The notes beneath the pieces are model-generated. The model was not told where the DNA came from and made no database searches. It saw only the letters and a program-made list of their open reading frames with translations. The translations under genes and the position numbers were made by a program. From Nitrospirota bacterium (GTDB lineage: Bacteria > Nitrospirota > Thermodesulfovibrionia > Thermodesulfovibrionales > Dissulfurispiraceae), in the NCBI GenBank assembly GCA_040754455.1, contig JBFMCP010000038.1:1-26354 (forward strand): a stretch of 26,354 bases of DNA, written 5' to 3'. Position 1 is the first letter of the stretch. The number at the start of each line of letters is the position of its first letter. Positions 1 to 20,493 of this stretch are shown piece by piece.

Positions 1-3000
1 TGTTGAAGTCCCAGGCATAGCTGCAGCCGCCCTGACAGGTCGAGCCCGATCCGTCAAAGTTGACCTTGTAGTCAACCACTGCGTCGGCGCTCCAGTTGTT
101 CACTGCCACTGGCTTCGAAATCCCTGCCGCCTCGGGAGTTATGAGCGACGCCATGTAGGTCGGGTCATAACCGAGGAAATCATTGGCGTTGAGAGTGGTC
201 TTGATCAGATCGCCGTCAGCGCATGATGCCTTGGGCATTCCCATCATATCGACGCACTTCTTCGCCTGATCCCATGAAGCTACGTGGTTCGGGTTGCCAG
301 GGTTCTGCTCAATGCTGATCGGCCAGGTGACCTTGTAGTCGAGCTGTCCCTGTGGGTTCGTAAAGGTCGACTGCTGGAGCATGATCTTGAAGTGCTTGCG
401 CACCTCAGCCCTCTGATAGAGCAAGCCGTTGGGATTGGCAGCATACTCCTCGGCAGGCCATGGTTTGCCGTTACAATCGGAATCCACCATGCACATGCCG
501 TTCGCCCTGAAGCTGTTGGAATCGCACTGTCCGGGCATACCCATTGACGGGTTTGCCCCGACGCAGGTGCCCATGGTGAACATCGGGTTGTTGCTCGGCA
601 TACAGGCGTTGACGCTGTAGCCGGGGAACGGACTCATGCTCTCGGCGCCGGCAAAAGGATTGCAGCCGAGGGTAGACCCTGATACTGTCTCGCGGATGGT
701 GAAGCCCTGGAGGCCGGAGATGCCGTCGTACATGCCCATCAGCATCGCAGTCCCCTGAGGGAAGCCCATCGCGGTATCGAACGTCGAGGTCATGAAGTTG
801 ACACAATGCTGGAGCTGGGTCCAGCCCATGCCGAAAGGATCGCCGCAGGCAGCCGTCATGATCGGGTTGCCGGCCTGATCGAAGTAGGTGGAATCCGGCT
901 GCGTGCCGCCGCCGCACATCATCGTGCAGTCATAGTCGGCAAAAAGCGCAAACCAGTTCTTGATCGCATCATACTGGCCGATGCCGAACCCCGTGCTCTC
1001 GAGAGGCTGCTGGTAGCTCTCGAAGAAGCCGATCGACTTCGAGGAGTAGTTGGGGTTCGGGCCGGTCGGCTGACCGTACTGGTTTCTCGCAAAAGGATCG
1101 ATGCTCGAGTGGCAACTGACGCAGCCGCCCCTCTTGCTGCCGCCCAATGCCCACTCCTTGGGTGCAACGCCGTGGGTCACATCGAAATCGGCCCAGAAGA
1201 GGCGCAGCTTGTTGGCATGACGGCTTCCGTCAACGATCAGGCTCGGGCTGGTCATCGCGTCGATTTCGGCCTTGGTGTCGATCGCGAAGGAGTCGGCAAG
1301 GGCGAAGCCGTCGAAAAGCGGCACCATGTTGCCTGCGTTCAGCCTGACGTCAATCGCTCCCTGAGAGAGGAGCTGACGTGCCGCCAGCGCAGTATCCCTG
1401 TGCTTCACCGGAGCGACGAGCGTACCGGTCGGGTAAGCGCTGTCAGCAGGATCGAGCGCAAGCTCGCTGCCGGTCGTATCAGCGACACCGTTCACCGTTG
1501 CAACATCGATGCTCTTCACGAATATCGGCAGCACTGCCGGGTTGATAGGATATATCTTCTTCTCGCCCTCCTTGGTCATCCACTTGCGGAGGACCGGCGA
1601 AGGCTTGTGCGAACCGGTGATGAGGTCGTAGTTCCAGTCGAGCATGTTACGTGCATTGCCCTTGTAGAACCCGACTGTCCAGTCTCTGTATTTCAGTTTT
1701 CCCGGTGCTGCATATATCTCGGGGATGTGGCAGGTCGAGCAGCCGATCTTCTCGATATGGAATGCAGGGAAGTTGGCGTGCGTCGGCGTCGGCGGATTGT
1801 AGACGACATCGTTGCCGTTCTTGTCCTTTACGATCTTGCCGATCCTCGGGTGGTCACGATGAGTATGGCAGCTCTCGCAGGAGACAGTGCCGTCCAGGTT
1901 GTTCTTGCCTTTGGTGTCCGGTGCGGAATCACTCTGCAGGAACTGGTGGTCGATGCCGAACACCGTCTCAGCAGGATACGCAATGCCGTTGTGGGTCGTG
2001 GCCGGGATGTCTCTCGAGCCACCCTCGAGCTCTGTGGAACCGATTGCCGAGTGACAGGTCGCGCACTGGTGAATGACCGAGTTTGCATTCTTGCCCATCT
2101 CGTGGACGTCGGTATCGGGCATTCTCTCTTTGGTGACGACCTTTGCATTAGGCCCGAGCATCCACTGCAGCGTCGGGGAGGTCAGCTCCTCGGTGACCAC
2201 AGGATCGCCCGGGTTCTTGCCGAGCCCGAACATCGCATTGAACATGCTCATGCCCCACTTGTCATTAGGGCCTTGTCCGATCCGGTGCGCCCTCTTGCCC
2301 ATACCGGTCTTGCAGCCGAGCTCGAGCCAGCGCTTGTCATTCATGCTGCCTGTCTGGGTGTCAAATGCGGTTCCGGCAGGGTTGAGGATAGCATAGTTGC
2401 CGTAGCCGAACTTCATCTGCATCATACCGGGCAGTCCGACCGTGTTCTCGTCACGGGCATGACAGACCGAGCAGTTCTGGCTGTTGGGAGTGCCCACGAT
2501 CTTATCTGCTGTAATGACCGAAGGCATGCCCGTAACGCCGATTGCGTTCCCGTTGGCGTCAAGCACCGCCTTTGCGCCGATACCGAGCGATGCGGCCAGA
2601 TCAAACCTGCCGCTCTTGATCGCGAAGTTTCTGTTGTACATATCATAGGCAGTACCCGGAGTATAGGGAGCTGCCTCGCCTTGGCAATAAGGATCTGTCA
2701 GCGGACCGATGCCGGTGGTGCTGCAATTCTTTGAATTGAGCCAGGCGATACCGTTCTTTGAGCCGTTCATGTGACAGAGGAGACAGTCGACCTCTGCCTT
2801 GTTGGTTGCAGACAATCCCGGAAGCTGTGCGGTCGGATCGTCAACCGATACGAGACGACCGTTGGGATAGGCAGCGCTCGGCGCCTCAAAATAGTACCGG
2901 TCGCCGGTCGGCGATGCTGCGCTGTAATCGTTCTGATTCCTGTCGTATTCCATCTGTCCGCCTCCGACGTGGCAGACACCGCAATACATTGCCCAGTCTT

Positions 3001-3481
3001 GGGCACCGCTCTCGATTGATCTTGAGTCTACGCCGTCTCCAAGGGGATCTACGTTTTTAGCCGCCAACTGGCGGTTGGAGGGCGGTCAAAACTTGCCGAA
3101 CATTCCTGGCGAGCTAGTAAACCAAGGAAGTCCGTATTTTGATCTGAACTTGTTGCTGTAGTCTTCATTGCGGCCCTGGTTGGAATGGCGTCCGACCGAA
3201 ACACCGTGCTCGAATGATTTCACATCATAGCTCTGCCAGTGGAGCTTGCCGTCCGATTCGAGGACAGCCTGGGTGTGGATCGAATGTTTCTCTCCGCTGC
3301 CGTAATTATGGCAGGTTCCGCAGGTCTGCTTTGGGCTGTAGGGCGTGACACCATCGGTGATCGGGGTTCCTGCGGAATCCTTCAGAACCACATCACCGCC
3401 GGGGTGCATCGCCATTGCGACCGGGAGCCCTGCAAAGAGCATAATAGCAGCGAGTACAGCTATCAATAGTCTCTTGCTCAT
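1..3481 (-). CDS. Large secreted octaheme c-type cytochrome (OTR-like heme spacing), probable selenoprotein via in-frame TGA at 3086-3088; 3'-truncated by the window edge
   Basis: Manual translation: ATG at 3481 behind GGAGG; signal peptide MSKRLLIAVLAAIMLFAGLPVAMA; CGTCH; ...SPGMFGKF-TGA-PPSNRQLAAK...; the same frame then stays open to base 1 with CGVCH, CLLCH, CSVCH, CATCH, CESCH, CSTCH, CVSCH (8 CxxCH in total), a Cys/Met-rich region and the start of a PKD-like domain (VNFDGSGS...YAWDF). The downstream part is absent from the ORF track because it has no stop in the window. Confidence 0.85.
3061..3088 (-). promoter_or_regulatory. UGA codon plus candidate bacterial SECIS element
   Basis: mRNA reads UGA CCGCCCUCCAA CCGCC-AGUU-GGCGG: 11-nt spacer, then a GC-rich stem with a G/GU-containing apical loop, similar in geometry to the E. 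coli fdhF SECIS. Confidence 0.65.
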
Positions 3482-3632
3482 CAAATTTCCTCCCATTTGA
3501 ATTGTTATTACCATAGTACTACCATCTAAGGACTGCCGTTGCCCTCTCCGCTCGGAAGGGCTTGCTTCCCACTGCCTGTCACGATCTCTTGTGCGGAGTC
3601 GGGGGACTCCCTGATCAAGCTGCTGCCCTGTA

Positions 3633-3648
3633 TGCAAAAGGCATACCA
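3633..3648 (-). promoter_or_regulatory. sigma54 (-24/-12) promoter for the octaheme gene
   Basis: Minus strand TGGTATGCCTTTTGCA = GG-N10-GC, about 150 nt upstream of ATG 3481. Confidence 0.7.
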
Positions 3649-4153: not shown

Positions 4154-4169
4154 TGGCACGCCGATTGCT
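4154..4169 (+). promoter_or_regulatory. sigma54 (-24/-12) promoter for the OmcE-like gene
   Basis: TGGCACGCCGATTGCT, an exact match to TGGCAC-N5-TTGC. Confidence 0.85.
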
Positions 4170-4306
4170 TCTTCATAGGCAAGATTTACGAGATTGCCTG
4201 TCACTGATTGCAGTGCTTCACGGTTCGGGGGTTCCGTGAAAAGCAACCACAACCCTGCCGGACGGCGGGGGAGGACAGAAAAATTTTCGAGCATGTGGAG
4301 GAAGAG

Positions 4307-5053
4307 ATGAAGAAAATCGTAGTAGTACTTTCGATGGCGGCCCTGAGCGTCTTGCTCGTCGCCACAATGGTATTCGCAGTAGCAGCGCCCGGCTCAGGTA
4401 TCAAGGGCACGTTCCATGATCTCAGTAAAACAGGCGCAACCGCAGTCGCCTACGGCGACACCGCAGAGCAGGCGGGCTTAGACCGAATCTGCGTCTACTG
4501 CCATGCACCGCACCACACCGCCAAGCTCACTGACAGTGCAACGAGCGGCGGCGTGCAGTACCTGCCCCTCTGGAACCACGGCGTAACCACTCAGACTTAT
4601 ACCACCTACACCAATGGTCCGGACGATCCGGCAGACGGCAACCACCTCTCAGCAGCAGAAGCTATGGCTGGCCAGCCCGGCAGCGTCTCCAAGCTCTGCC
4701 TGAGCTGCCATGACGGCACCGTCGCGACCAACCAGTACGGCTTCTACTCCTCGCCTTCCAAGGGCGCAGGCGACAAGTTCATCAGCGCAGGCCGCGCACT
4801 CATCGGCGGCGGAGGCGACCTGACCAACCACCATCCCGTCGGCTTCGACTATGCTATGGTAAAAGCTACGGACGATGAAATCGCCGACACCACTGCAACG
4901 CTCGGCAGCTATACCATCGGCGACCTCCTTTGGGCCGGCAAGATGGAGTGCACCACCTGCCACGATGTGCACAACACCAAGAACACCGGTAACAAGTTCC
5001 TCTGGATCGAGGACACGAACAGCCAGTTCTGCATGGCCTGCCACCTGAAATAA
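4307..5053 (+). CDS. omcE: Tetraheme c-type cytochrome, OmcE-like (cytochrome nanowire subunit family), 248 aa
   Basis: ATG 4307 after GGAGG; signal peptide; CVYCH, CLSCH, CTTCH, CMACH with the OmcE-type context I-K-x-T-x-HDLS...ICVxCHxPH...PLWN...CxSCHDG...DLxNxHPVxF...ECxxCHxVH...FL...CxxCH at the C-terminus. Family recognised from memory; orthology not verified. Confidence 0.85.
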   Translation: MKKIVVVLSMAALSVLLVATMVFAVAAPGSGIKGTFHDLSKTGATAVAYGDTAEQAGLDRICVYCHAPHHTAKLTDSATSGGVQYLPLWNHGVTTQTYTTYTNGPDDPADGNHLSAAEAMAGQPGSVSKLCLSCHDGTVATNQYGFYSSPSKGAGDKFISAGRALIGGGGDLTNHHPVGFDYAMVKATDDEIADTTATLGSYTIGDLLWAGKMECTTCHDVHNTKNTGNKFLWIEDTNSQFCMACHLK

Positions 5054-5077
5054 GAGCAACACGCAGAACACATAGAC

Positions 5078-5111
5078 AAAAGGGGAATGGGTACAGCCCA
5101 TTCCCCTTTTT
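5078..5111 (+). terminator. Rho-independent terminator
   Basis: AAAAGGGGAATGGG-TACAG-CCCATTCCCCTTTTT perfect stem with U tract, 25 nt after the stop. Confidence 0.9.
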
Positions 5112-5215
5112 CATTCAAAGGGCACAATTAAGGAATCCATTGATTTTGATTTTTTCTATTCGCATTTCGCATTCCACCGGGTGAACGGCCTTTATAGTGT
5201 GAAAGGTACCTTGTG

Positions 5216-5224
5216 TGCTATCAT
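5216..5224 (+). promoter_or_regulatory. Possible extended -10 sigma70 promoter for the accessory cluster
   Basis: TGcTATCAT about 50 nt upstream of ATG 5275; no clear -35. Confidence 0.35.
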
Positions 5225-5274
5225 AAAGGACGTCTCCTGACGGGGCGCAAAGATTCAAGAACGAGGAGTTTCCG

Positions 5275-6459
5275 ATGAATACCGTGAGGTTGATCTGTCT
5301 GGCGCTTTTGGCTGTTTTCGTACTAACAGGGTGCGGGGGGGCACCACCGAAAAAAGAGGATGCCCCGACGGTCTTTTATCCCGATCCTCCCGAACCTCCC
5401 CGCATACAGTATCTCACCTCTTTCACCAGCGCACGCGACGTCGAGGCCGAGAAATCCGCATTCGATGTCTTCATCACCGGCAAGAAAGACGATACCCTCC
5501 GGCTCGACAAACCCTACGGCGTGGCGATGCACAACGGCAAGATATACGTTTGCGACACCAACTCTACCGTGATGGTCTTCGACCTCGAGAAGCGGGCCTT
5601 CGCGCCTCTCATCGGCGCGAAAGGTCTGGGCAAGCTGGCGCAGCCGCTCAATATCAGCATTGACCGCGACGGCAACAAGTACGTCGCCGACCCGCTGCGC
5701 GGCCAGGTGGTCGTCTTCGACAAAAACGACCTCTACGCCCGGGCAATCGGCATCAGCGCGGGCTGGAAGCCGGTCGATGCAGTAGTCTACGAAAACGAGC
5801 TCTATGTCGCCGATATCCAGAACGGCGAGATCAAGGTCTTCGACAAAAACACCGGCGACCTCCTGAGAAAGCTCGGACAGAGAGGGGACCTCAACCAGCG
5901 GCTCGCCATGCCAACCAACATCGCCTTCGACAGCACCGGCGATCTCCTCGTTTCGGATGCCGGCATCTTCAGGGTCGTGCGAATGGACCGCGACGGCCAT
6001 ATCAAGACCACCATCGGCGGCGTCGGCGCCAACATCGGCAAGTTCGCGCGGCCCAAGGGGATCGCCATAGACCGTGAAGACCGGCTCTATGTTGTCGATG
6101 CCGCCTTCGACAATGTGCAAATGTTCAACAAGGACGGCTACCTGCTCCTCTTCTTCGGCAAGGCCGGCAGGAAGGCGGGCGACCTCTACCTGCCGGCAAA
6201 GGTCGCCATCGATTACGACAATGTCCGGTACTTCCAGAAATACGCGGACCCCAACTTCACGATCGAATATCTCATCCTTGTCACGAGCCAGTTCGGCGAC
6301 AGGATGGTCAACGTGTACGGGTTCGGCAAGGAGCGGGGGAGAAGATATCCCACGGACGAGGAGTTGAAGAAACTGATCGAAGAGCGGATCGAACGCATGA
6401 GGAAGGAGGAGCAGGAGCGGGAAAAGGCGGCATCGGAAGAAGACGAGAAAAAGAAGTAA
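5275..6459 (+). CDS. NHL-repeat beta-propeller lipoprotein
   Basis: GAGGAG RBS; lipobox LTGC; repeated F/L-x-x-P-x-G/N-I-A-x-D...YV-x-D motifs; charged helical C-terminal tail. Confidence 0.9.
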   Translation: MNTVRLICLALLAVFVLTGCGGAPPKKEDAPTVFYPDPPEPPRIQYLTSFTSARDVEAEKSAFDVFITGKKDDTLRLDKPYGVAMHNGKIYVCDTNSTVMVFDLEKRAFAPLIGAKGLGKLAQPLNISIDRDGNKYVADPLRGQVVVFDKNDLYARAIGISAGWKPVDAVVYENELYVADIQNGEIKVFDKNTGDLLRKLGQRGDLNQRLAMPTNIAFDSTGDLLVSDAGIFRVVRMDRDGHIKTTIGGVGANIGKFARPKGIAIDREDRLYVVDAAFDNVQMFNKDGYLLLFFGKAGRKAGDLYLPAKVAIDYDNVRYFQKYADPNFTIEYLILVTSQFGDRMVNVYGFGKERGRRYPTDEELKKLIEERIERMRKEEQEREKAASEEDEKKK

Positions 6460-6478
6460 CACGACCGCCTGGTGTGCT

Positions 6479-7048
6479 ATGAGAAGATGGATGTGGATTT
6501 TCATCGGTGCTCTGGCCGCGGCATCCGTCTACGGATGCTCGCAGCACTACCTTCTGGAGGATGACCAGGGGAATGTGCTGGGCACCGAGGAGCAGAAATA
6601 CAGGGTGCTGAGCTTTTTCTTCGACGGCGTGCCGCCGCCGGTCAAGGAGTCCGGACAGGAACCGGGGGAGGAGGCTTCGAAAACAACGGCAGTGCGGCAG
6701 CGCTTCACTGCCCACGGTCCTTACGCAGCACGATTCTGCGATGCATGCCACCTGCGCGGCAGCAACAAGCTCCTGATGCCGGTCGAAGAGCTCTGCCTGA
6801 ATTGCCATACGCTGAGTACGGCCAAGAAGAAGCTCCACGGGCCCCTCGCCGCAGGCAGCTGTAATGTCTGCCACGACCCCCATGGCTCATCTTACCGCTA
6901 CCTCCTCGTCTCCGACTCGAAGACCTTCTGCTACCACTGCCACAACCAGAGTGACGTCATGAGGCGGCCGGTCCATCAGGGCACTGACCTGGAGTGCACC
7001 ATGTGCCACGACGCCCATGCTGCGGACAGCGAGTTTTTGCTGAAATGA
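6479..7048 (+). CDS. Pentaheme c-type cytochrome lipoprotein
   Basis: Lipobox VYGC; CDACH, CLNCH, CNVCH, CYHCH, CTMCH in doubled-CxxCH arrangement; LSFFFDGVP motif. Confidence 0.9.
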   Translation: MRRWMWIFIGALAAASVYGCSQHYLLEDDQGNVLGTEEQKYRVLSFFFDGVPPPVKESGQEPGEEASKTTAVRQRFTAHGPYAARFCDACHLRGSNKLLMPVEELCLNCHTLSTAKKKLHGPLAAGSCNVCHDPHGSSYRYLLVSDSKTFCYHCHNQSDVMRRPVHQGTDLECTMCHDAHAADSEFLLK

Positions 7049-7266
7049 CGGGAAAAGGAAAAAAACAACAAAAGATTCGATGGGAAAACCCGAAAAAAAA
7101 AGAGATTCCGTTACAAATTAATGAGGTAAGAGAGCCGGTGCCTGTCCTTGCTTCGAGTATCTTGATGCTGAAAAGCAGACGGCTTTGAACCGGAGTTGCA
7201 GCTTTGGAAATCAGATCGCTTTTTTAATTTTCTATTTCATCTGCGGGGGGGAAGACGGAGAGGCGG

Positions 7267-9312
7267 ATGCGGCGGACAGTCATACTTGTTCTGGTGGTAA
7301 ACGTGCTCCTGCTCATGCCCTGCGGGGCAGGGGCGGATGCTCGCCGCTTTATCCCCAGGATATCTGCGTTCGAGGCGAACCTCGATGTCGAGGCAGAGCA
7401 TGAACGGAACAAGAACACCACCGACGGCCAGGGCTCTTCGACCCGCAGCACCGTCATATCCGAAAGGCTCGTCCTCTCCTCGGTCGGCTATGTGTATCAC
7501 CCCCGGTTCATCACCTTCCTGGCAGAGCTCGCCGGCGGCCTCAAGCAGGACGAATCGCATACCTCGTCATGGCACGGCGACACGTTGTATGAATACGAGC
7601 TCCGGGCCTATGTCCTGCCCGAGCATCCCTATAACCTCGAGCTCTTCACGCTGCGTCGGGAGCCGACGCTCACCGGCCGGTCACTCGCCGGCGGCGACCC
7701 CGTCCTGTATCAGAAAGGCGGCATCTTCCGCTACAAAGAGCGTCCCATCTTCTTCGACATGAGTTATATTTTCGATGATATCGAATCCGGGCAGAGCGAC
7801 TCGAGCACCGAAACGTTCAATACCAATGCGAGCTATTTCACCGACACCTTCCACGTGGGGGCCGGGTACTCCCACTCCGACTCCGACTCGAAATCAACCG
7901 GCATCGCTCCCCGTTCCTCACAGTACAAAACAGACCGCTACTATGCGAACAACTGGATTGATTTCGAAGAGGCGCGCCTCTTCAGCAACCTCCAGTACCA
8001 GGTCAGAGAAGAGAGGCGTTCCGACGGCCCCAGAGAAAAGGACCGCAACCTGCAGTGGACCGAACAACTGGATATCTACGTGCCCAAGAACTTTGAGACG
8101 AACCTCACCTACAACCACTTCCAGGATACCATCGAGACAAAAGAGGCCGGTGTGGCTGATACAGCGAGGATCTACAACAAAGCCCATAATCCCGCTCTCA
8201 GGATCACCCACCGGCTCTACGAAAGCCTGACCACCAATTACCAGCTCAATTATATCGATACCAAGACGTCGGGCGGCGAGATCAAATCGACATCCCATAT
8301 CGGCGGAGTTGCCTATACGAAAAAGCTGCCCTGGGAGAGCAGACTGAACACCGGCGTCACCCTCGGCACTATGCTCACCGACAGTACCGGAAGCATTCTT
8401 GTCCTTGAGGAGCCCTTCACTGCAACGCCAAGCGATCCGCAATTGAACACCTATACACTCAAACAGTTCAATGCCGATGTCAATACAATTAGTGTGGTGA
8501 TCCGGCACCCCACCATTACCGCTGACCGCCAGCCGCTTTTCAGAGGAGTTCACTATGATGTTGAACCGTTCGGTACAACGTTCAGGATCAGGGTATTCAG
8601 TTTGGCAGGCATCACTTTTACCGATGCGTCGACGCCGAATCCCCTCGCAGCCCAGCAGTTTTTCGTCACCTATGCTTCCGCTCCCGGCGATTACAAGCTG
8701 AGGACGGATACGGTGGCGTACAACATCCAGTTCAGCCTCTACAAGAATCTCTTTTCGCCCTACTTTGCCTTTTCCCGTTCCAAGCAGAGCCTTGAAGAGG
8801 GCTTCGTTGCCGGCGGACCGCAGACGACGACCACAAAAACCACCGGCGCCGTTGTTCAGAAGCAGCCGTTTATCTATCTGATCGAATATATGCAATTCGA
8901 TTCGTCCATAAGCCCTCTCAGGAAGTGGCGGACCGAGCTCTCCTACCGCCAGGACGTCACTGACACGGTCCTCGTCGATTCGAGGGTCCGCTACGAAAAG
9001 ACCGACTATGTCATGATCGCCGGGGAACCTGATTCAGGGTACAGTGAAGAGCTGTACGGCATAAACATCTCGGTACAGAAGCGGATTCCGCGACGGGGGC
9101 TCCAGATCATGGTAAGCGGGGCCTATTACCGTTCCGGCGGCCCTACCGACACGGATACCTATGTGCTCAACAATCTCCTTACCTGGCGCATCGGGAAGCT
9201 CGACCTCGAGGCCGGCACCAATATCATCCATACGGAGGCGACATCGAGCGCGAGCACAAGCAAATACACCTCGCAGCTCTACTACCTCAAATTCAGGAGG
9301 AACCTATTTTAA
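7267..9312 (+). CDS. Large outer-membrane beta-barrel protein
   Basis: GGAGAGG RBS; signal peptide; many alternating-polarity Tyr/Ser/Thr-rich strands; C-terminal LYYLKFRRNLF beta-signal ending in Phe. Confidence 0.8.
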   Translation: MRRTVILVLVVNVLLLMPCGAGADARRFIPRISAFEANLDVEAEHERNKNTTDGQGSSTRSTVISERLVLSSVGYVYHPRFITFLAELAGGLKQDESHTSSWHGDTLYEYELRAYVLPEHPYNLELFTLRREPTLTGRSLAGGDPVLYQKGGIFRYKERPIFFDMSYIFDDIESGQSDSSTETFNTNASYFTDTFHVGAGYSHSDSDSKSTGIAPRSSQYKTDRYYANNWIDFEEARLFSNLQYQVREERRSDGPREKDRNLQWTEQLDIYVPKNFETNLTYNHFQDTIETKEAGVADTARIYNKAHNPALRITHRLYESLTTNYQLNYIDTKTSGGEIKSTSHIGGVAYTKKLPWESRLNTGVTLGTMLTDSTGSILVLEEPFTATPSDPQLNTYTLKQFNADVNTISVVIRHPTITADRQPLFRGVHYDVEPFGTTFRIRVFSLAGITFTDASTPNPLAAQQFFVTYASAPGDYKLRTDTVAYNIQFSLYKNLFSPYFAFSRSKQSLEEGFVAGGPQTTTTKTTGAVVQKQPFIYLIEYMQFDSSISPLRKWRTELSYRQDVTDTVLVDSRVRYEKTDYVMIAGEPDSGYSEELYGINISVQKRIPRRGLQIMVSGAYYRSGGPTDTDTYVLNNLLTWRIGKLDLEAGTNIIHTEATSSASTSKYTSQLYYLKFRRNLF

Positions 9313-9379
9313 TCGCAATAAGGTAAAATAGACGGCACAACAAAACAAGACAAACGAACAGGAACAATCAGGAGGAATC

Positions 9380-10456
9380 ATGAGAAAAGTACTCACTTCC
9401 GTCATAGCAGCAGCGGTGATCGGCACACTGGCCCCTGCTGCCCATGCGTTCCCCAAAGAGGGGATGCAGGGAGCAGGACAGGAGCAGAAACAGCAGCTCA
9501 CTCCCGAGCAGATCGAGCAGGCAAGGAAGAGCAGGGAGGAGGCGCGGAAAATTATCGTGGCACGGGTGAACGGCGCGGCGATCACGATGGAATCACTGGT
9601 TAAGATGATGAACCGGCTTGGCCCTGCCTCAAAAGACATCGAGAGCACCAAGCGGGACGCACTGGACAAGCTCATCTTCCAGGAGCTTGCCTTTCAGAAG
9701 GCCAAGGCAGAAGGGATAACGGTGGAAAAGGAAAAGATCGATGCAGCCGTCACCAATTTCAGGAATAATGTGGGCGGCGATGAGGAATTCAAGAAAGCAC
9801 TTGATGCCGAGGGGCTGACACTGGAGATGCTGAAGGCGCAGATTGAGCGGAGCCTGATGCTGGAGCAAATATTCGGCAGGGAGGTCTACAGCAAGGTAAC
9901 CATCCCCGAGGATAAAGTGAAAGAGGAGTACGAGCGTGAAAAGCACCGCTTCATAAAGCCCGAAAAGGTAGCGGTGGTCGATGTGCTGGTCCTCCAGAAG
10001 GAGGGCACGGCCGATGCTGCGAAAAAGGCGGCGGAGCTCCTCGAGAAGATCAAGGCCGACAGGAATCAGGACCCCTGGAAGCTCGTTCTCGACGGGAGCT
10101 TCATCGTGCGGCACTACCAGATAAGAAAAGACAAGGACAAGGAACTCCATGAGGCAGCGGTCAAGCTCAAGCCGGGCGAGCTCTCCGGCGTGATAAAGGC
10201 TCCCGACGGCTATCACGTGCTGAAGCTGAAAGAGTATTCGCCGGAAAGGTACTATACATTCGAGGAGTCCCGGGGGGCACTGGAAGGCAAGTTCAGGTAT
10301 GAGGCCCAGGAGCAGCGGGTCAAGGAGTGGCTGGAGGAATTGAAGAAAGGTGCAAAACTGGAAATAATAGAGTCGGCTCTCGCCACTCCGTCAGCGGAAG
10401 CAAAGTCGTCGAGCGCTCCTTCGGGCGGGAAGGACGTACCGGGAAAAAAACAGTGA
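9380..10456 (+). CDS. SurA/PrsA-like periplasmic chaperone with parvulin (PpiC)-type domain
   Basis: AGGAGG RBS; signal peptide; VARVNGAAIT...LDKLI...GITV SurA-N motifs; LKPGELSGVIKAPDGYHVLKL parvulin tail. Confidence 0.85.
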   Translation: MRKVLTSVIAAAVIGTLAPAAHAFPKEGMQGAGQEQKQQLTPEQIEQARKSREEARKIIVARVNGAAITMESLVKMMNRLGPASKDIESTKRDALDKLIFQELAFQKAKAEGITVEKEKIDAAVTNFRNNVGGDEEFKKALDAEGLTLEMLKAQIERSLMLEQIFGREVYSKVTIPEDKVKEEYEREKHRFIKPEKVAVVDVLVLQKEGTADAAKKAAELLEKIKADRNQDPWKLVLDGSFIVRHYQIRKDKDKELHEAAVKLKPGELSGVIKAPDGYHVLKLKEYSPERYYTFEESRGALEGKFRYEAQEQRVKEWLEELKKGAKLEIIESALATPSAEAKSSSAPSGGKDVPGKKQ

Positions 10457-10515
10457 CATGCGGGAATATGCAGTAAGCCGTACAAGAAGCGTTGTGCGCA
10501 GGAGTAGCGGACACG

Positions 10516-11541
10516 ATGTGTAGACGACTCTTCAAAGCACTCTGGTGCGTCGTGCTCATCCTCGCTACCGGCTGCAGCACCAAATGGGTGATGGACGCCG
10601 ATGTGTCGGAGACGCAGCAGCTCTGGGTTCAGGAACCGCGGATCCCGAAGGCCAGACATGTTCTGACCATCAGGGGCTTCAAAGAGACCGGGACCTCTCT
10701 CAAATCAGTGCTGTTCGGCAAACGTGGGCACCCCCTCCTCCGTCCCGTTGCCGTAGCAACAGGACGCGACGGCAGGATCGCCATCGTCGATGCCGAAGCA
10801 CGCTGTGTCGCGCTCTTCAGGGCATCCGACCAGAGCTACTCTCCGATCTGCGGCACCGCAGATATCGATTTCGTCTCCCCTGTCAGCGCCATCTTCGATG
10901 AGGAGCTGAGGCTCTATGTCGCTGATTCGGCACTGGGCAGGGTCTTTGTCTTTGACGCACAGGGAGCGCCGCTCACGGCCTTGAGCACACCGTCCGGGGG
11001 GTTCGCCCGGCCCACAGGCCTCGCCTATAACCTCGACCGGAAGATGCTCTATGTCATCGATACCGTCGCGAATAAAATATACGCATACTCGCCGAAAGGC
11101 GAGCTCCTCTTTTCGTTCGGCGAACGAGGGACCGCTGCCGGCCAGTTCAATTACCCGACCCATCTTTTCTGGTCGCCTGCCGGGTTGCTGTACGTCACCG
11201 ATGCGATGAACTTCAGGATCCAGATATTCAATGATGATGGTACGTTCAGAACCGCGTTCGGCAGCCACGGCGACGGGTCGGGGGATTTCGCCATGCCGAA
11301 AGGCGTGGCGGTCGACCGCTTCGGGACTATCTACGTTGTCGACAGCCTCTTCGACAATGTGCAGCTCTTCACCGAGCGGGGCAACTTTTTGCTCACCCTC
11401 GGCAGGCGCGGCAGCGGTCACGGCGAATTCTGGCTGCCGTCAGGGGCTTTCATCGACAGCGACCGACTGTATATAAGCGATACCTATAACCAGAGGGTGC
11501 AGGTGTTCCAGCTCTACGGAAACCCGTATGAACAGGAGTAA
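10516..11541 (+). CDS. NHL-repeat beta-propeller lipoprotein
   Basis: ATG 10516 gives a signal with lipobox ATGC; six NHL repeats (FARPTGLA, FNYPTHL, FAMPKGVAVD, FWLPSG). Confidence 0.9.
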   Translation: MCRRLFKALWCVVLILATGCSTKWVMDADVSETQQLWVQEPRIPKARHVLTIRGFKETGTSLKSVLFGKRGHPLLRPVAVATGRDGRIAIVDAEARCVALFRASDQSYSPICGTADIDFVSPVSAIFDEELRLYVADSALGRVFVFDAQGAPLTALSTPSGGFARPTGLAYNLDRKMLYVIDTVANKIYAYSPKGELLFSFGERGTAAGQFNYPTHLFWSPAGLLYVTDAMNFRIQIFNDDGTFRTAFGSHGDGSGDFAMPKGVAVDRFGTIYVVDSLFDNVQLFTERGNFLLTLGRRGSGHGEFWLPSGAFIDSDRLYISDTYNQRVQVFQLYGNPYEQE

Positions 11542-11580
11542 CTCCATACATAAAGCGGCGAAAAGCATCAGGAGGGGCGG

Positions 11581-13359
11581 ATGACCCAGAAGAAAAGAAC
11601 AACAGTGTCTTATGTAATCGGCGCATTCTATGCCGCATGCTACATCCTGTTGAGTGCTCCCGCAGCATGGGGGGCCAAGGCAGGTATCGCGTCCACCGTG
11701 CATAATCTGTCGGTATCCGGGCCCGGAGAGCTCAAGGCCCTCACCGAAACGCGCATCTGCGTCTTCTGTCATACGCCGCACAACGCTGCACCCCAGACGC
11801 CCCTCTGGAACAAGAATATTGACCCGGTCAGCTACGACATTTATGCCAGTACAACGCTCCATGTGAGCCCCTCTCAGCCGACAGGCTCATCGCGGCTCTG
11901 CCTGAGCTGTCACGACGGGACCATCGCACTCGGCAATGTCCGGACGCCCTCTGGAGGCATCCAGACCACGGGAGAGATCACTTCTGGCCGGCTCTCCTAC
12001 ATAGGAACCTCACTCACCAATGACCACCCGATCTCATTCTCCTATTACGACGCCACGGTAAACCACGAGATCGCGCCGTCTCCGCCCGCAGGACTCCTGT
12101 TCTTCGGTCCCCGGTACCTGGTGCAGTGCTCCACCTGCCATGACGCCCATGAGGACGCCTATCGCTCGCCGGACAAAAGCGGACGCTTGACAGGGAAGTT
12201 TCTCGTTATGAACAACCGTTACTCCGCGCTCTGCACGCAGTGCCATATAAAAGACGGCTGGCTGTCCGCCACACACCGGAGCACAGCGCAGCCGGTCAAC
12301 GCCGTGCTGCCGCTGAGCCCGAGACTCTGGCCGACCTGGCTCTCTGTCACCGAATGGGGCTGCGAGAGCTGCCATACACCACACTCTGCAGGAGGGAATC
12401 AACGGCTCCTCAACTTCCAGGAAGAGGAAAAGAATTGCCTCCTTTGTCATAACGGCACAGTAGCACAGAAAAACATCCAGGCGCAGTTTCAGAAGCTGTC
12501 ACACCACCCTGTAGAGACAGCGACCATCGGGCTTACCGGAAACGCTCACCAGCCCAACGAATCGCCCTTGCTGCTTTCGGGCCATGTGGAATGCGCCGAC
12601 TGCCACAATGCGCACGCTGCCAACAACAGGACCGCCTCCGCTCCCTATGCATCGGGGAGGCTCGAACTGGTAAGCGGAGTGAGCATCACCGGCGCTGCAG
12701 TGAGCCCGGTGACCTACGAATACGAGGTATGTTTCAAATGCCATGCCGATTCCAGTGGTGGCTTTCCCCTTGTTTCCCGCGTCGTCAACATGACGAACAC
12801 GCGCTTTGAATTCGATACGGCAAACCCTTCCTACCACCCGGTCGCCGGCGTCGGCAGAAACACGTTTGTCCCAAGCATTCCGAGCACGTACAAGCCAACC
12901 CTCACGGCATCGAGCATCATCTATTGCAAGGACTGCCATGAGAGCGATGAGAGCACGGACATCGGCGGAGCAGGCCCCCGCGGGCCCCACGGCTCACAGT
13001 ACCGACCGCTCCTCAGGGAGCGCTATGAAACGCTGGACAACACCTTCGAGAGCTTCCAGAACTATGCCCTCTGCTACCGCTGCCATAACAGGGACAGCAT
13101 TCTTGGCGATCAGAGCTTCAAGGAGCACCGGGAGCACATCGTTGAAAAAAACACGCCGTGTTCAGTCTGCCACGATCCGCACGGCGTCCGTTCAGACGGT
13201 GGGCTGACCGGCGACCACACCCACCTGATCAACTTCGATACGCGCGTCGTGTCTCCTGTTCAGGGGCGGACATATCCAACGTTTACCGATCTGGGCACCG
13301 GAAGGGGAAGCTGCACCCTCGTCTGCCACGGCAAGACACACAATCCACTGTCGTACTAA
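11581..13359 (+). CDS. Multiheme c-type cytochrome (11 CxxCH plus one CxxxCH) with OmcE-like N-terminal module
   Basis: AGGAGG RBS; signal peptide; CVFCH, CLSCH, CSTCH, CTQCH, CESCH, CLLCH, CADCH, CFKCH, CKDCH, CYRCH, CSVCH, CTLVCH. Confidence 0.92.
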   Translation: MTQKKRTTVSYVIGAFYAACYILLSAPAAWGAKAGIASTVHNLSVSGPGELKALTETRICVFCHTPHNAAPQTPLWNKNIDPVSYDIYASTTLHVSPSQPTGSSRLCLSCHDGTIALGNVRTPSGGIQTTGEITSGRLSYIGTSLTNDHPISFSYYDATVNHEIAPSPPAGLLFFGPRYLVQCSTCHDAHEDAYRSPDKSGRLTGKFLVMNNRYSALCTQCHIKDGWLSATHRSTAQPVNAVLPLSPRLWPTWLSVTEWGCESCHTPHSAGGNQRLLNFQEEEKNCLLCHNGTVAQKNIQAQFQKLSHHPVETATIGLTGNAHQPNESPLLLSGHVECADCHNAHAANNRTASAPYASGRLELVSGVSITGAAVSPVTYEYEVCFKCHADSSGGFPLVSRVVNMTNTRFEFDTANPSYHPVAGVGRNTFVPSIPSTYKPTLTASSIIYCKDCHESDESTDIGGAGPRGPHGSQYRPLLRERYETLDNTFESFQNYALCYRCHNRDSILGDQSFKEHREHIVEKNTPCSVCHDPHGVRSDGGLTGDHTHLINFDTRVVSPVQGRTYPTFTDLGTGRGSCTLVCHGKTHNPLSY

Positions 13360-13438
13360 CAGCTATCAGCAAAATAAAGAATGGAATGACAAAGTATTTT
13401 TCCCTTCTTTTGCTGACGGCTGACAGCTGATAGCTGTT
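13358..13438. repeat. Heptanucleotide-periodic inverted repeat between convergent genes (possible bidirectional terminator)
   Basis: AACAGCTATCAGC (13358-13370) pairs with GCTGATAGCTGTT (13426-13438); right arm GCTGACG GCTGACA GCTGATA GCTG. Confidence 0.75.
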
Positions 13439-13440
13439 TC

Positions 13441-14886
13441 CTATTTGTCGTCGGGTACGTCGATTTTCAGTTTCTTCAGGCGGTAGCGGAGCGTGTCCCT
13501 GCTCACATCGAGCAGCTTCGCCGCTTTCCTTTGATTGCCGTCGGCAAGTTTAAGCGCAGTCTTGATGAATTCGGCTTCCATCGCCTTCAGCGAAAGGGTG
13601 GTAGGGAGCACATGGTCTACCGCTTCAGCCGGGGCCTCGGCTGTCTTGAGGGGCTTCTCGGAGAGGATATTCGAGGGGATATCGTTGATGTCGATCTCGT
13701 CGTTCTTTGAGAGGATGACAAACCGCTCCACGAGGTTCTTGAGCTCCCTTACATTCCCTGGCCATGAGTAGTGCTGCAGGATTTCGAGGGCGCGGGGGGT
13801 GATGCCCTTTGGCCTGCCGTCATACTTCGTTGCATAATGGTTCAGGAAGTACTGCACCAGCAGGGGGAGGTCCTCTTTCCGCTCCCGCAACGAGGGCATT
13901 TCTATCGCCGCTACGTTCAGGCGGTAAAAGAGATCGAGCCTGAACTTCTTGCTGTGGACCAGATCCTGGAGGTTGACATTGGTGGCAGCGAAGATCCTGA
14001 CATCGGCATGGGTATACTTGAGGCCGCCGATCCTCCTGAAGCGCCGCTCCTCGATGAGGTCGAGGATCTTCGACTGCATCTGATACGGCATATCGCCGAT
14101 TTCATCGAGGAAGACCGTGCCGCCCTGGGCGATCTCGATGAGTCCCTTCTTGTCGGCCTTCGCATCGGTGAACGCGCCTTTCTCATAGCCGAAGAGCTCG
14201 CTCTCGATCAGGTGGTCGGGGATATTCGAGCATCCTATCTCCACAAAGGGTTTGTCTTTCCGCGGGCTCAGCTCGTGCATCTTTTTGCAGAGGGAGCTCT
14301 TCCCTGTGCCGCTCTCGCCGGTGACGAGCACAGTGACATCAGTCTTGGTGGCCAGGCGCTCCATGATCCTGATGATCTCCTTCATTTTGTCGCTGACAAA
14401 GACAAAATCTCCCATGTCCGATGACTTCGCTGCTGAAGGAGCAGTATCGACTTTTATCGAGGTGAGGATTTTTTTCAGGTTGTTGAAATCGAGCGGCTTG
14501 ACGAGATAATCGTAGGCGCCGATCTTCATCGCCTCGACCGCACCCCGGACATCGGCGTTGCCGGTGATGAGGATGACGATGGTCTCGGGGTTCATCTCCT
14601 TTATGGTTTTCAGCAGTTCGAGACCGTTGGCATCAGGGAGGTTGATATCCAGCAGGATAATCCCGGGGTTTTCCTCTTCGATACTCTTGAGCGCCTTGAG
14701 ACCGGAGCTTGCCGTTATAACACCGTATCCCTCTTTCTCGCAGAACCCTTTGATCGAGCTCCGGATGAGCGATTCGTCATCAACAACCAGTATCTTTTTA
14801 GATGTGTGCGAAGCGGCGGCAGGTCCGCTGTTGCTGATACCGAGACTGTTATGCATTATCGGCGTCCTCCCCCTCTCCACTGGCAT
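13441..14886 (-). CDS. sigma54-dependent response regulator (NtrC/AtoC family)
   Basis: Receiver (ILVVDDE, LLDINLP), AAA+ (GESGTGKS, ESELFGYEKGAFTDA, FLDEIG, WPGNVRELKN), Fis-type HTH. Start could be a downstream ATG. Confidence 0.95.
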   Translation of the reverse strand: MPVERGRTPIMHNSLGISNSGPAAASHTSKKILVVDDESLIRSSIKGFCEKEGYGVITASSGLKALKSIEEENPGIILLDINLPDANGLELLKTIKEMNPETIVILITGNADVRGAVEAMKIGAYDYLVKPLDFNNLKKILTSIKVDTAPSAAKSSDMGDFVFVSDKMKEIIRIMERLATKTDVTVLVTGESGTGKSSLCKKMHELSPRKDKPFVEIGCSNIPDHLIESELFGYEKGAFTDAKADKKGLIEIAQGGTVFLDEIGDMPYQMQSKILDLIEERRFRRIGGLKYTHADVRIFAATNVNLQDLVHSKKFRLDLFYRLNVAAIEMPSLRERKEDLPLLVQYFLNHYATKYDGRPKGITPRALEILQHYSWPGNVRELKNLVERFVILSKNDEIDINDIPSNILSEKPLKTAEAPAEAVDHVLPTTLSLKAMEAEFIKTALKLADGNQRKAAKLLDVSRDTLRYRLKKLKIDVPDDK

Positions 14887-15003: not shown

Positions 15004-15696
15004 CTAAAACCGCCAAGTGCTCCCCGGCTTCCTCGAGCCCGGTGCGGGCGGCGTCTGGGGCCGGGGCGCAGGCCGCGGAGGCGTCTGAACGCTCCTCCCC
15101 CCTCCCTGCTCTGAATGCTGCGGGGCGAACTCTTCCTCGCCCTGCGGGGGCGCTGCCGCTGTGGTCACTGCACCGCTCCGGTCCTTTTTCCCCGAAGTAA
15201 TCACCTTGACCTCTATCCTGTCCTCGCCCCTGACGAGCACGACCTTTTCGTGTTTGACCTCTTTCAGGACATAGCCGCTCAGGGAATCCCCGATCTTCAG
15301 CGCATTCTGCCGCTTGCCGCGCCCCGGTGTCGTGCGCTCCGCCTTTTTATCGGTCATGTAGGCGAGGCTCACCTCATCGGTGATGAGCGTTCCGTAGAGG
15401 ACGAATTCGGGTTTTGGAAGCGCCTTTTCCTCTTTCTTCAGGGGCGGAATCTTCCGCTCGGGGTGAAACAGGTTCTGCTCCGCAATGATCGTATACTCCA
15501 GGTGCGGCGGAATCTGCTGCGGCTGGCCTGCCGCCCCCTCTTTCTTCTCCTCCACCACCGCTTTGGTCTTGAGCACCGGCAGCTTTACGGTGACATTGAA
15601 CATGGGGAACAGAACATATCCAGCAAATGCCAGTGCACTACCCAGCAGGAGCAGATTCAGAATATTTATATTTCGTAAGAGTGATTGCAGCCGCAT
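15004..15696 (-). CDS. Type II secretion GspC-like inner-membrane protein
   Basis: N-terminal TM; NLFHPER; FVLYGTLI...AYM...IGDSLSGYVLKEVKHEKVVL HR-like domain; no PDZ; operon position. Confidence 0.65.
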   Translation of the reverse strand: MRLQSLLRNINILNLLLLGSALAFAGYVLFPMFNVTVKLPVLKTKAVVEEKKEGAAGQPQQIPPHLEYTIIAEQNLFHPERKIPPLKKEEKALPKPEFVLYGTLITDEVSLAYMTDKKAERTTPGRGKRQNALKIGDSLSGYVLKEVKHEKVVLVRGEDRIEVKVITSGKKDRSGAVTTAAAPPQGEEEFAPQHSEQGGGRSVQTPPRPAPRPQTPPAPGSRKPGSTWRF

Positions 15697-16364
15697 TACT
15701 TGCCTCCGTACAGGGCGGATACATCCAGTTTTACCATAAGGTCCCTGGGCTCCTTGAAGTTTTTGACCCTCGCATCGAGCTCCTTTATCACGAGATAGGG
15801 GACCCGCGTCTCGATAGAATAGAGCATGTCGCTCAATGCGCCCGGATCAGGCACGCTGGCGTCGATGCTTATGGAGATGAGCTTGAACTTCGCCCCCCCT
15901 TCAGCCGGTGCCTCGTCCTTCTTGCCTTTGGCAGCGCCAGCCTTTTTGGCGGGAGACTCTTTCGCAGGCTGCTGCTCTTTGCCAGGTGCAGCCGCTGCAT
16001 CAGTCTTGACGAGGTCCTCGGGCTTGCCGATCCTTTCGCTCGAAATCGTTCCCCCTCTTCCCGTAATAATGCCCTTCACCGTATCCTGGAGGTTTGCCGA
16101 GGCAAGGGAGACCGGCTCGCCCTCGATGAGCTTGGTGTTGTTCGCCTTCACCTTCTCCTTGAGTGCAGCGAGTTTCTTTTCGAGCTCGGGCTTCTCGGCG
16201 ATGATCGCCGTATACTTTTCGAGTGTCTTCATTTTTATGTCCTGCTGCTCCTTGATCGAGGCGAGCTCGGCCTTGATGCCGAGATAACCGTATTGATACA
16301 CTACCATGATCAGGAGCAGTCCGATTGCCGGGATTGCCATGCCAAGGGTTTTATTTTTTTTCAT
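15696..16364 (-). CDS. gspM: Type II secretion protein GspM-like
   Basis: TM, coiled coil and ferredoxin-like C-terminal domain (LSDMLYSIE...LVIKELD); follows gspL. Confidence 0.75.
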   Translation of the reverse strand: MKKNKTLGMAIPAIGLLLIMVVYQYGYLGIKAELASIKEQQDIKMKTLEKYTAIIAEKPELEKKLAALKEKVKANNTKLIEGEPVSLASANLQDTVKGIITGRGGTISSERIGKPEDLVKTDAAAAPGKEQQPAKESPAKKAGAAKGKKDEAPAEGGAKFKLISISIDASVPDPGALSDMLYSIETRVPYLVIKELDARVKNFKEPRDLMVKLDVSALYGGK

Positions 16365-18806: not shown

Positions 18807-18820
18807 TACTCATCCTTATT

Positions 18821-18898
18821 CAAAATGCAAAAAGCAAAATGAAAAAATAAAAATTAAGATATTCCTTATTTTTGCATTTTTAAATTTTAATTTTTATG
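18821..18898. repeat. AT-rich heptanucleotide-periodic inverted repeat between gspJ and gspK
   Basis: CAAAATG CAAAAAG CAAAATG AAAAAAT AAAAATT ... TTTGCAT TTTTAAA TTTTAAT TTTTATG. Confidence 0.7.
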
Positions 18899-19522: not shown

Positions 19523-19983
19523 ACCTTCTTTTCGATCAGCTTCATCGTATGCAATGATAAAGAGCGGTCCTTTATCCCCTTTTTCCAGCGAACGGTAAGG
19601 GTGACATCGAGGAGCTCCACATTCAGTTTTTCCGTCCTGTCTTCGAGGTCCTTCTTTACCGCGACATCAACAGCATACCCGTCCTCTGTCTGGAAATTCC
19701 ATACCTGCTCCTTCAGCTCAGGGTCGTCCAGCACCTCTCTCATGAGCGCCTCTGCCTTGATCGTTGCAGCCACGTAGTCCTCGGATGCCGTAATCGACCG
19801 CATGTCCGCAGAAAAGAGCTGCATGATCATAACCAGAGCCATGGCGAGGATCGAGAGGGCGACCAGCACCTCCAGGAGAGTAAAACCGGATTCCTGTTCT
19901 ACTCTCCTGAAGGAATTTAAAGTTAAAAGATCAAAAGGTAAAATCGCGGAAGCTTCCCTCTTTTTGAATTTTTCTTTTTGCAT
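19519..19983 (-). CDS. gspI: Minor pseudopilin GspI
   Basis: G|FTLLEVLVAL; short domain ending VTLTVRW; long 33-aa leader. Confidence 0.88.
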   Translation of the reverse strand: MQKEKFKKREASAILPFDLLTLNSFRRVEQESGFTLLEVLVALSILAMALVMIMQLFSADMRSITASEDYVAATIKAEALMREVLDDPELKEQVWNFQTEDGYAVDVAVKKDLEDRTEKLNVELLDVTLTVRWKKGIKDRSLSLHTMKLIEKKV

Positions 19984-19990
19984 CTTGATT

Positions 19991-20470: not shown

Positions 20471-20493
20471 TTCCTCACTTCTCAATTTTCGAT

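Follow-up and report, generated by a model that had tools for sequence, protein, structure and literature searches.

Gene Structure at the Locus

The 26,354-nucleotide stretch of DNA analyzed here (contig JBFMCP010000038.1, referred to as the window) carries on its minus strand, at positions 2..3481, at least 1160 codons that encode a secreted c-type cytochrome with eight hemes. This coding sequence is interrupted by a single in-frame TGA and is very probably one selenoprotein gene. The frame starts with ATG 3481, preceded by the Shine-Dalgarno sequence GGAGG (3489..3493, minus strand) with a 7-nt spacer. The TGA (3088-3086) is codon 132, translated here as selenocysteine (Sec), and is followed by 1028 codons without a stop up to window position 2. 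An earlier sequence-only reading of this DNA had described a 131-codon open reading frame with one heme motif, continued in the same frame by seven more CxxCH motifs up to the window edge, and this arrangement (1 + 7 motifs, 1160 codons) was confirmed.

All parts of the gene lie on the minus strand. Residues 1-24 (MSKRLLIAVLAAIMLFAGLPVAMA, 3410..3481) form a signal peptide, recognized by eye, with the look of a Sec-type signal (Sec here denoting secretion), a likely cleavage site after VAMA and a similar beginning in homologs. The segment that follows, up to residue 131 (3089..3409), contains heme motif 1 (PYSPKQTCGTCH, with CGTCH at residues 54-58; 3308..3322) and the conserved H99, and ends in ...TSSPGMFGKF directly before the UGA codon (3086..3088). 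Past this codon lie a hairpin of the selenocysteine insertion sequence (SECIS) type, CCGCC-AGUU-GGCGG (3061..3074), and heme motif 2, CGVCH at residue 167 (2969..2983), which together with the subsequent VGGGQMEYDR belongs to the most conserved block of the superfamily. The other motifs were assigned from sequence and alignment: CLLCH at residue 233 (2771..2785), CSVCH at residue 337 (2459..2473), CATCH at residue 473 (2051..2065), CESCH at residue 535 (1865..1879), CSTCH at residue 581 (1727..1741) and CVSCH at residue 787 (1109..1123). An N-terminal signal peptide and multiple CxxCH motifs are the marks of a secreted multiheme c-type cytochrome.

Gene callers annotate this locus as two genes, in which case the TGA would be a true stop, separating a monoheme cytochrome of 131 codons from a heptaheme protein with a gene of its own. 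Same-frame neighbors do occur in the window (gspE/gspF), but this explanation is very improbable. The attachment of c-type hemes takes place solely after export, and the downstream part, as already noted from the sequence, has no signal peptide of its own; the peptide past the TGA (PPSNRQLAAKNVDPLGDG...) is hydrophilic. Ahead of heme motif 2, no start is available except a TTG inside the hairpin (3067-3065), which is the false start picked by gene callers; the only other start-like codon in this stretch, ATG 2989, stands two codons before CGVCH. In addition, 45 homologs run uninterrupted with Cys, and the stops found in the others are TGA without exception, with no TAA or TAG among them and with the hairpin in every case.

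Among the 1542 in-frame stops of the six frames, TGA132 ranks second by its shorter open flank (188/1028 codons), and the stop that ranks first is the TAA that separates gspE from gspF, two genes that share a frame and form a genuine two-gene junction. The window sequence alone is not beyond chance, and it is the comparative data that make the case. A genome-wide reassignment of TGA (code 4/25) was rejected, since TGA ends three of the 18 other window genes at their expected lengths and is an ordinary stop here. A second read-through candidate, the TGA-ended cytochrome gene at 6479-7048, was also rejected, its extension being junk.

Homologs Across the UGA Codon

A word-indexed search with query residues 1-330 identified 71 relatives among 3813 candidates. 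Most of these cover the part past the TGA only (44-58% of the query region), a minority span all of it, and none of the 71 is labeled as a selenoprotein by its source. Eleven full-length relatives were retrieved, with Cys at the TGA column in 10 and Asp in one (P0067). Full-length homologs of the Cys type are 1084-1399 aa long and their alignment runs through the TGA position, and the block around the column is kept on both sides as SSPGM[FY]G[KR]x-C-PPSNRQLA. In a 15-sequence alignment (A1), the column holds Cys in 12 of the 14 homologs, Asp in one and Ser in one, and none of the eight heme motifs varies.

When 1.84 billion representatives were searched exhaustively with HMMER, 214 matches were obtained at E<=0.001. 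Among the 150 matches listed, 34 short proteins (86-179 aa) end exactly at query residue 131, and 25 long proteins start at query residues 139-177, in line with the expectation that standard pipelines would split the protein. The short fragments end in ...GM.GK(Y/F/W) or close variants (34/34), and 18 of the 21 inspected long fragments start with (M/L)AAK, which corresponds to the TTG codon of Leu139 inside the hairpin. The gene is cut at the identical place in dozens of independent clusters, and public annotation shows it as a short 'cytochrome' plus a 'hypothetical/InlB/PKD' protein that lacks its N-terminus. Because annotation splits the gene, counts of multiheme cytochromes and of selenoproteomes are wrong in these sulfur- and metal-cycling lineages, and what is probably a catalytic terminal enzyme in clusters for extracellular electron transfer has been overlooked.

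At the DNA level, a scan of GTDB contigs gave 604 pattern matches, of which 114 were confirmed and 80 were kept, resulting in 74 loci. The column was located in 75 sources, including the window, with the PYSPK and heme-2 motifs as anchors and the residue at the column left free. This search found 73 sites in 72 of the 75 sources, namely 27 TGA, 27 TGT, 18 TGC and one TCA. Locus L014 adds a 28th TGA, behind an interrupted upstream frame, and L012 and L025 do not include the site. The 74 homologous sites thus comprise 28 TGA, 45 TGT/TGC (Cys) and one TCA (Ser). The sequence-only reading had predicted TGA or Cys in homologs, with conservation on both sides, and apart from the single Ser this is what was observed. 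Trp, Arg or Gly, a TAA or TAG, or a shift of frame, which it had named as signs of an error, a mutation or two genes, were looked for at the column and found at none of the 74 sites. The residue is Sec or Cys in 56/56 aligned superfamily members, and the base after the UGA is C in 22 of the 28 TGA genes. A UGA flanked by protein conservation on both sides, with Cys homologs aligned to it, is the pattern by which selenoprotein genes are recognized.

These data also bear on the possibility that the TGA arose through an error in sequencing or through a recent nonsense mutation in a pseudogene. The window comes from a single assembly, but 27 independent assemblies, drawn from several phyla, have TGA at this column as well, and both sides are still conserved at the protein level, which makes this explanation hardly credible. 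The family is spread over Thermodesulfobacteriota, Nitrospirota, Calditrichota, Planctomycetota and others.

At their C-termini, homologs carry PKD, Ig-like, InlB-B or carboxypeptidase-regulatory repeats. Additional C-terminal heme motifs were observed in two relatives, with 13 CxxCH in L008:5983-10437 and 11 in L013:5964-8633, compared with eight. The window protein contains a Met/Cys/Gly-rich insert at residues 856-1060 (window 302-916, minus strand), with 16 Met, 9 Cys and 25 Gly per 205 residues. This insert is limited to the clade of the window protein (P0003, P0004, L001-L006) and is missing from shorter relatives; it may bind metal or be rich in disulfides.

A SECIS-Type Hairpin Restricted to UGA Genes

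The hairpin CCGCC-AG(U/G)U-GGCGG, or a compensated variant of it such as UUUCGCC-AGUU-GGCGAAA or UUCGGC-AGGU-GCCGAA, is present at 28/28 TGA sites and at 0/46 non-TGA sites. The stem begins 11 nt past the UGA, and in the window the distance from UGA to loop is 16 nt; the 11-nt spacing agrees with that of the minimal Escherichia coli fdhF SECIS. A simple stem count gives at least 5 bp at 27 of the 28 TGA sites, the remaining one being L018 (3 bp, in a shifted register, with an RNAfold energy of -9.8 kcal/mol). The mean minimum free energy (MFE) of nt +10..+42 is -9.79 kcal/mol at TGA sites vs. -2.79 kcal/mol at non-TGA sites (Mann-Whitney p = 2.9e-12).

Pairing is also supported by covariation. 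In the 28-row alignment, 83.6% of the cells pair and four of the seven pairs change on both sides, resulting in a covariation score of 0.218 vs. 0.094 for shuffled alignments (reached by 0/500 shuffles) and at most 0.087 for slid registers. RNAalifold gives the identical 5-bp stem, and the wobble positions from the UGA to the stem vary freely. The R-Q-L-A residues within the hairpin are encoded as CGC CAG TTG GCG at 20 of 24 Sec sites but at 0/29 Cys sites, which have CTN as the Leu codon. Since codon choice for this peptide is free in the Cys-type genes, the hairpin is selected at the RNA level.

The bacterial SECIS (bSECIS) model, as given in PMC13188914, has a loop of 3-9 nt with a G in its first two positions, a stem of 4-16 bp, a UGA-to-loop distance of 16-37 nt and an MFE of -7.5 or lower. 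The window hairpin agrees with all four rules, with the loop AGUU, a 5-bp stem, 16-nt spacing and -9.4 kcal/mol; loop positions 2-3 are G and then U. A tandem arrangement was observed at L009, a Nitrospirae metagenome-assembled genome (MAG), where two Sec-type paralogs (6001-10038 and 10312-13386) each have a TGA and a hairpin, the hairpin of one being a G-U wobble variant (CCGUC...GGCGG).

Selenocysteine and Alternative Decodings

That the locus holds one gene with a recoded UGA is close to certain. That UGA132 is decoded as Sec and not as another residue, which had been proposed from the sequence and is supported by the Sec/Cys column together with a hairpin restricted to TGA genes, is highly probable. 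Overall, a single recoded gene for a Sec-bearing, exported octaheme enzyme is the best explanation, with a probability of about 0.85. Following the standard bacterial mechanism, SelB with Sec-tRNA(Sec) would bind the hairpin and insert Sec at UGA132; the product of more than 1160 residues would then be exported via its N-terminal signal peptide and subsequently gain eight c-type hemes.

Several observations weigh against this explanation. The gene is incomplete, its C-terminus being lost at the window edge. No tRNA-Sec was found by tRNA scans of the window and 29 loci, nor selA, selB or selD within the same sequences, the source genome not having been searched for either. Rfam gave no match in an E-value scan of 2800-3300 or in the whole window at gathering thresholds, and thus has no curated SECIS family for this hairpin. 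The stem is short (5 bp in 19/28 TGA genes), and that of L018 has just 3 bp by the simple count. The hairpin overlaps the conserved peptide NRQLA, so that its conservation is partly at the protein level; here, the Cys-type genes serve as the control. Finally, the column holds Asp or Ser in P0067, P0098 and L035 (L035:2410), and the residue is dispensable in places; these members may be inactive or functionally different forms.

Indirect support comes from the literature on both lineages concerned, Nitrospirota and Desulfobulbaceae/Desulfurivibrionaceae, in which Sec use is supported at the lineage level. A Sec-type MccSep with a SECIS is reported in Nitrospirota and Desulfurivibrio (PMC13510729), and complete selABCD sets are found in Thermodesulfovibrio genomes carrying selC* (PMC5389517).

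The selC* genes raise the question of whether UGA132 could be recoded as a residue other than Sec. Cys could be inserted by a tRNA(Sec)-like tRNA-Cys(UCA) (selC*) with a SelB-type factor, or by near-cognate suppression; the gene would then have a UGA codon and yet yield a Cys enzyme. PMC5389517 describes selC* tRNA-Cys, in part with the opal anticodon, from Thermodesulfovibrio, Thermodesulfobacteria, Nitrospirae-like contigs and deltaproteobacteria, and reports that opal-to-Cys decoding was demonstrated in a reporter. The GspE of the window points to Nitrospirota/Thermodesulfovibrionales, and Cys is tolerated at the column in 45 natural homologs. However, according to the same paper every selC*-bearing genome also has a complete Sec apparatus, and the hairpin fits the SelB/bSECIS consensus. 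Moreover, the UGA and the hairpin have been kept in 28 genes from several phyla, even though a one-base change to TGY would give Cys, which argues for selection for something other than Cys. Recoding to a residue other than Sec is therefore considered quite improbable.

A dual outcome is unlikely as well. Termination competes with Sec insertion in bacteria, and 30-40% recoding is reported for E. coli (PMC4513850). The upstream part of the window gene has its own signal peptide and heme motif; termination could produce a secreted protein of 107 residues with one heme, while recoding would produce the octaheme enzyme, in a ratio set by the selenium supply. No free-standing N-terminal homolog with another stop codon was found, however, and the short fragments all end at the TGA column. 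In Cys-type genes, the N-terminal part is always fused, and the heme-1 module has conserved blocks in common with the downstream part.

Relationship to Known Multiheme Cytochromes

Searches of the family databases did not place the protein in a known family. Pfam gave sub-threshold cytochrome matches only, and the single NCBIfam match of the window protein (P0001) was to TIGR04315 (OTR), at 21.7 bits vs. a cut-off of 375. The close homolog L001 reaches 48 bits with this model (E 9e-13; residues 465-810 on profile positions 125-428; same cut-off), and members of the wider family reach 26-52 bits and also have weak matches to the MmcA model TIGR04314. The TIGR04315 matches are colinear with heme motifs 3-8, and the N-terminal Sec module (residues 1-230) is unmatched. 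The term 'OTR-like' used in the sequence-only reading therefore holds for the eight CxxCH and for a distant, sub-threshold similarity, but with scores far below the 375-bit cut-off the protein is not a member of OTR.

Searches of PDB sequences with P0001, profile A2, the 84-aa Sec region, P0128 and profile A4 left the Sec module unmatched. Profile A2 gave only PKD domains, in the C-terminal repeats. The later hemes of the wider family weakly match OcwA (6I5B, E 8e-4), NrfA (6V0A, E 2e-3 to 4e-5), octaheme nitrite reductase (ONR) and OTR, and the heme-8 region of P0128 aligns to residues 392-419 of 1SP3. In the ESM Atlas, the Cys-type homolog P0004 matched generic multiheme clusters only.

Heme-c selenoproteins were first shown by experiment in 2026, with MccSep (PMC13510729). 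Table 1 of PMC13188914, as far as accessible, catalogs 119 prokaryotic selenoprotein families, of which three have heme-c motifs: ExtKL, GSU2204 and a GenBank-annotated Sec form of TIGR04315. Neither NF040886 (ExtKL) nor NF041027 (GSU2204) matched P0001 or eight Sec-type relatives at E<=0.01. A literature search returned only the MccSep/ExtKL papers and a review, and no description of the present family in their accessible parts; the supplements of PMC13510729 (637 homologs) or the sources of the review may list members under other names. On these sequence comparisons, the protein is assigned to a new family among the Sec-containing multiheme cytochromes, with distant kin in the OTR/NrfA class, and it is neither a MccSep nor an OTR member. 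This would add a further heme-c selenoprotein family that differs in its architecture and in the position of Sec.

MccSep and ExtKL (GSU2937-2936 in Geobacter sulfurreducens) are one and the same protein. This polysulfide reductase is a selenoprotein with five hemes, and its Sec325, beside a His/Cys-ligated heme, attacks polysulfide or selenite (PMC13510729). Both MccSep and the window protein are periplasmic or secreted multiheme c cytochromes with one in-frame UGA-Sec codon, a split annotation, natural Sec/Cys homolog pairs and a short SECIS-like hairpin within 30 nt, and both occur in Desulfobacterota and Nitrospirota. They also have the local motif U-P-x-x-N-R in common (GUPTPNR in MccSep and FUPPSNR in the window protein), which may be due to convergence. 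In contrast, the window protein has eight hemes instead of five and more than 1160 aa compared with about 49 kDa, and its Sec132 lies between heme motifs 1 and 2, whereas the Sec of MccSep lies in a C-terminal Ig-like domain after all hemes. The difference from ExtKL suspected from the sequence is borne out, as both the NF040886 model and the pentaheme architecture fail. No sequence similarity between the two was detected in the PDB searches, the presence of MccSep in the PDB copy being unconfirmed. MccSep nevertheless is the best working model for a Sec that cleaves chalcogen bonds beside a heme.

OTR of Shewanella (TIGR04315; PDB 1SP3) resembles the window protein in having eight CxxCH in one polypeptide and in the weak colinear match over motifs 3-8, and both fall in the class of catalytic multiheme enzymes for S and N oxyanions. 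The window protein is 2-3 times larger, and its Sec module has no counterpart in the OTR profile. Mowat et al. reportedly described the active-site heme of OTR as Lys-ligated in 2004, and a Cys reportedly lies close to this Lys-ligated heme 2; in the present family, K51 (53/56) and K396 (56/56) are candidates for a heme-ligating Lys. NrfA, ONR and OcwA give the best, still weak, matches of the wider family to solved structures. These matches span two to four heme motifs, none of the three proteins has the Sec/Cys module, and OcwA has nine hemes. OcwA is a cell-surface terminal reductase with non-bis-His hemes (PMC7096707).

The GSU2204 family (NF041027) is likewise a predicted heme-motif selenoprotein from Geobacter-type clusters, and the small cytochromes of the window weakly resemble the GSU2203 family, the neighbor of GSU2204. 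Unlike members of that family, the window protein does not match the NF041027 model; the accessible part of Table 1 in PMC13188914 describes GSU2204 proteins as MtrB/PioB-type outer-membrane barrels.

Conserved Residues and Proposed Function

Across the 56 superfamily members, Sec/Cys132, P134, H99, R284, K396, H460, H512, H568 and H575 are conserved in all 56, and K51, Y60, R137, E178, D180, Y279 and D458 are near-invariant. Six conserved non-motif His (five invariant, and H770 in 49/56) are available for eight hemes, and therefore two or more of the hemes may be open on the distal side or ligated there by a residue other than His. With 10.8 kDa per heme in its heme domain, the window protein falls in the 'peptide-replete' class of multiheme cytochromes, a catalytic class (PMC7096707).

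Because residue 132 is an invariant Sec/Cys in the most conserved block, between heme motifs 1 and 2, it is probably catalytic. Sec132 would be the catalytic residue of a redox active site built with the first two hemes, acting either as a nucleophile beside a heme or as the distal ligand of that heme. If Sec/Cys132 ligates a heme, a chemical analogy to TsdA and SoxAX is possible; these are His/Cys-ligated heme enzymes of thiosulfate/tetrathionate chemistry, without sequence relationship to the window protein. The remaining hemes would form a wire that brings electrons from neighboring multiheme cytochromes. As the substrate of such a reductase, inorganic S, Se or As species are proposed, based on the analogy with MccSep and on the gene neighborhoods of relatives. 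This chalcogen or metalloid substrate is tentative, with slightly less than an even chance. The natural Sec/Cys pairs of the family offer a ready system to study why selenium is chosen at a heme site.

Neighboring Genes, Phylogeny and Possible Gene Transfer

The Sec gene is divergent from a porin-cytochrome-like cluster on the plus strand (window 4208-13359). This cluster encodes, in order, a 4-heme cytochrome, an NHL propeller, a 5-heme lipoprotein cytochrome (lipobox VYGC), a 681-aa barrel-like protein, a SurA/PpiC isomerase, a second NHL propeller and an 11-heme MtrC-like cytochrome. The 681-aa protein has a signal peptide, a C-terminal ...RRNLF and no family match, and has the look of an outer-membrane barrel. 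Further along, a sigma-54 response regulator (13441-14886, minus strand) is followed by a complete type II secretion system (T2SS) set at 15004-26202, comprising GspC-like, M, L/PilN-PilM-like, K, J, I/H pseudopilins, F, E and the secretin D. The adjacent T2SS is a plausible export route for large cytochromes. A surface or secreted location of the Sec protein would fit both this neighborhood and the C-terminal repeats.

A perfect match to the sigma-54 -24/-12 element (TGGCACGCCGATTGCT, 4154-4169, plus strand) lies upstream of the 4-heme cytochrome gene. A tentative element with two mismatches (TGGTATGCCTTTTGCA, 3633..3648, minus strand) is found about 150 nt upstream of the ATG of the Sec gene. 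Over the window as a whole, sigma-54 matches are no more numerous than expected by chance. The close homologs L001, L003, L006, L008 and L009 likewise have SurA/PpiC isomerases, c7-type cytochromes and NHL propellers as neighbors, and the Cys-type L002 has MauE and rhodanese genes downstream.

A quick maximum-likelihood (ML) tree was made from the 56 sites (21 Sec, 35 Cys) that have 300 or more residues downstream, with shorter rows dropped and the tree unrooted. The window gene groups with Sec forms of Desulfobulbaceae and Desulfurivibrionaceae, with Sec forms of Nitrospirota next, and L001 is about 62-68% identical to the window protein. At least four Sec/Cys switches are needed on this tree vs. 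17.2 with shuffled labels. In contrast, GspE (21691-23226, minus strand) is 77-83% identical to MAG proteins of Nitrospirota, Thermodesulfovibrionales, Dissulfurispiraceae. The source is therefore probably a Nitrospirota bacterium of the Thermodesulfovibrionia type, and an origin from Desulfobulbales, suggested by the nearest relatives of the Sec gene, was rejected as the simple reading. Since the affinities of GspE and of the Sec gene disagree, the Sec gene may have moved between phyla.

A Membrane-Anchored Branch and Arsenic Clusters

A distant and mostly Cys-type branch of the superfamily consists of proteins of 755-919 aa with eight hemes and the invariant Cys/Sec. In 12 of the 13 members examined, 3-5 hydrophobic segments follow heme 8, and cytochrome b-type domains were found in L053 (PF01292) and L018 (TIGR01583, 114.5 bits vs. 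a cut-off of 115.85). Two Sec-type members, L018:815-3466 and L026:5845-8301, are fused to a formate-dehydrogenase-gamma-like cytochrome b domain, the TIGR01583 score being that of L018. Such a cytochrome b fusion implies that the Sec module is coupled directly to quinones of the membrane pool.

Arsenic-type neighbors were present at six of the 11 distant-branch loci examined. ArsM, above its NCBIfam cut-off, is encoded directly downstream of the cytochrome gene in L021 (cytochrome at 5785-9267) and L032 (at 5893-9620), and ACR3, also above its cut-off, is a neighbor in L053 and L067. L032 also has an ArsC-type protein, below its cut-off, L045 has ArsR/SmtB and rhodanese, and L027 has an ArsP_1-type permease. 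No description of a multiheme cytochrome within ars clusters was found in a literature search. Arsenate respiration without arrAB has been reported in Anaeromyxobacter PSR-1, which has 54 multiheme cytochromes (PMC4432346). The arsenic branch is a lead and not a finding on the window gene, but it is a testable one for unexplained arsenic redox chemistry.

A wider proposal, which is rather doubtful as a whole, combines both branches. The Sec/Cys between hemes 1 and 2 would be an unrecognized, multi-phylum catalytic module, with the window branch being an outer-membrane or extracellular selenoenzyme acting on insoluble S, Se or metalloid substrates, and the ars branch a quinol-linked arsenic redox enzyme. 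If true, the window branch would provide the first case of a selenoenzyme that works at the outer membrane or outside it, wired to a porin-cytochrome/T2SS electron-export cluster, and the cytochrome b-anchored ars branch would be a candidate for Arr-independent arsenate respiration (cf. PMC4432346).

Thioredoxin and/or DsbD/CcdA neighbors were also present at six of the 11 distant-branch loci examined. Further loci listed with the arsenic-linked branch are L039, L041, L065 and L026.

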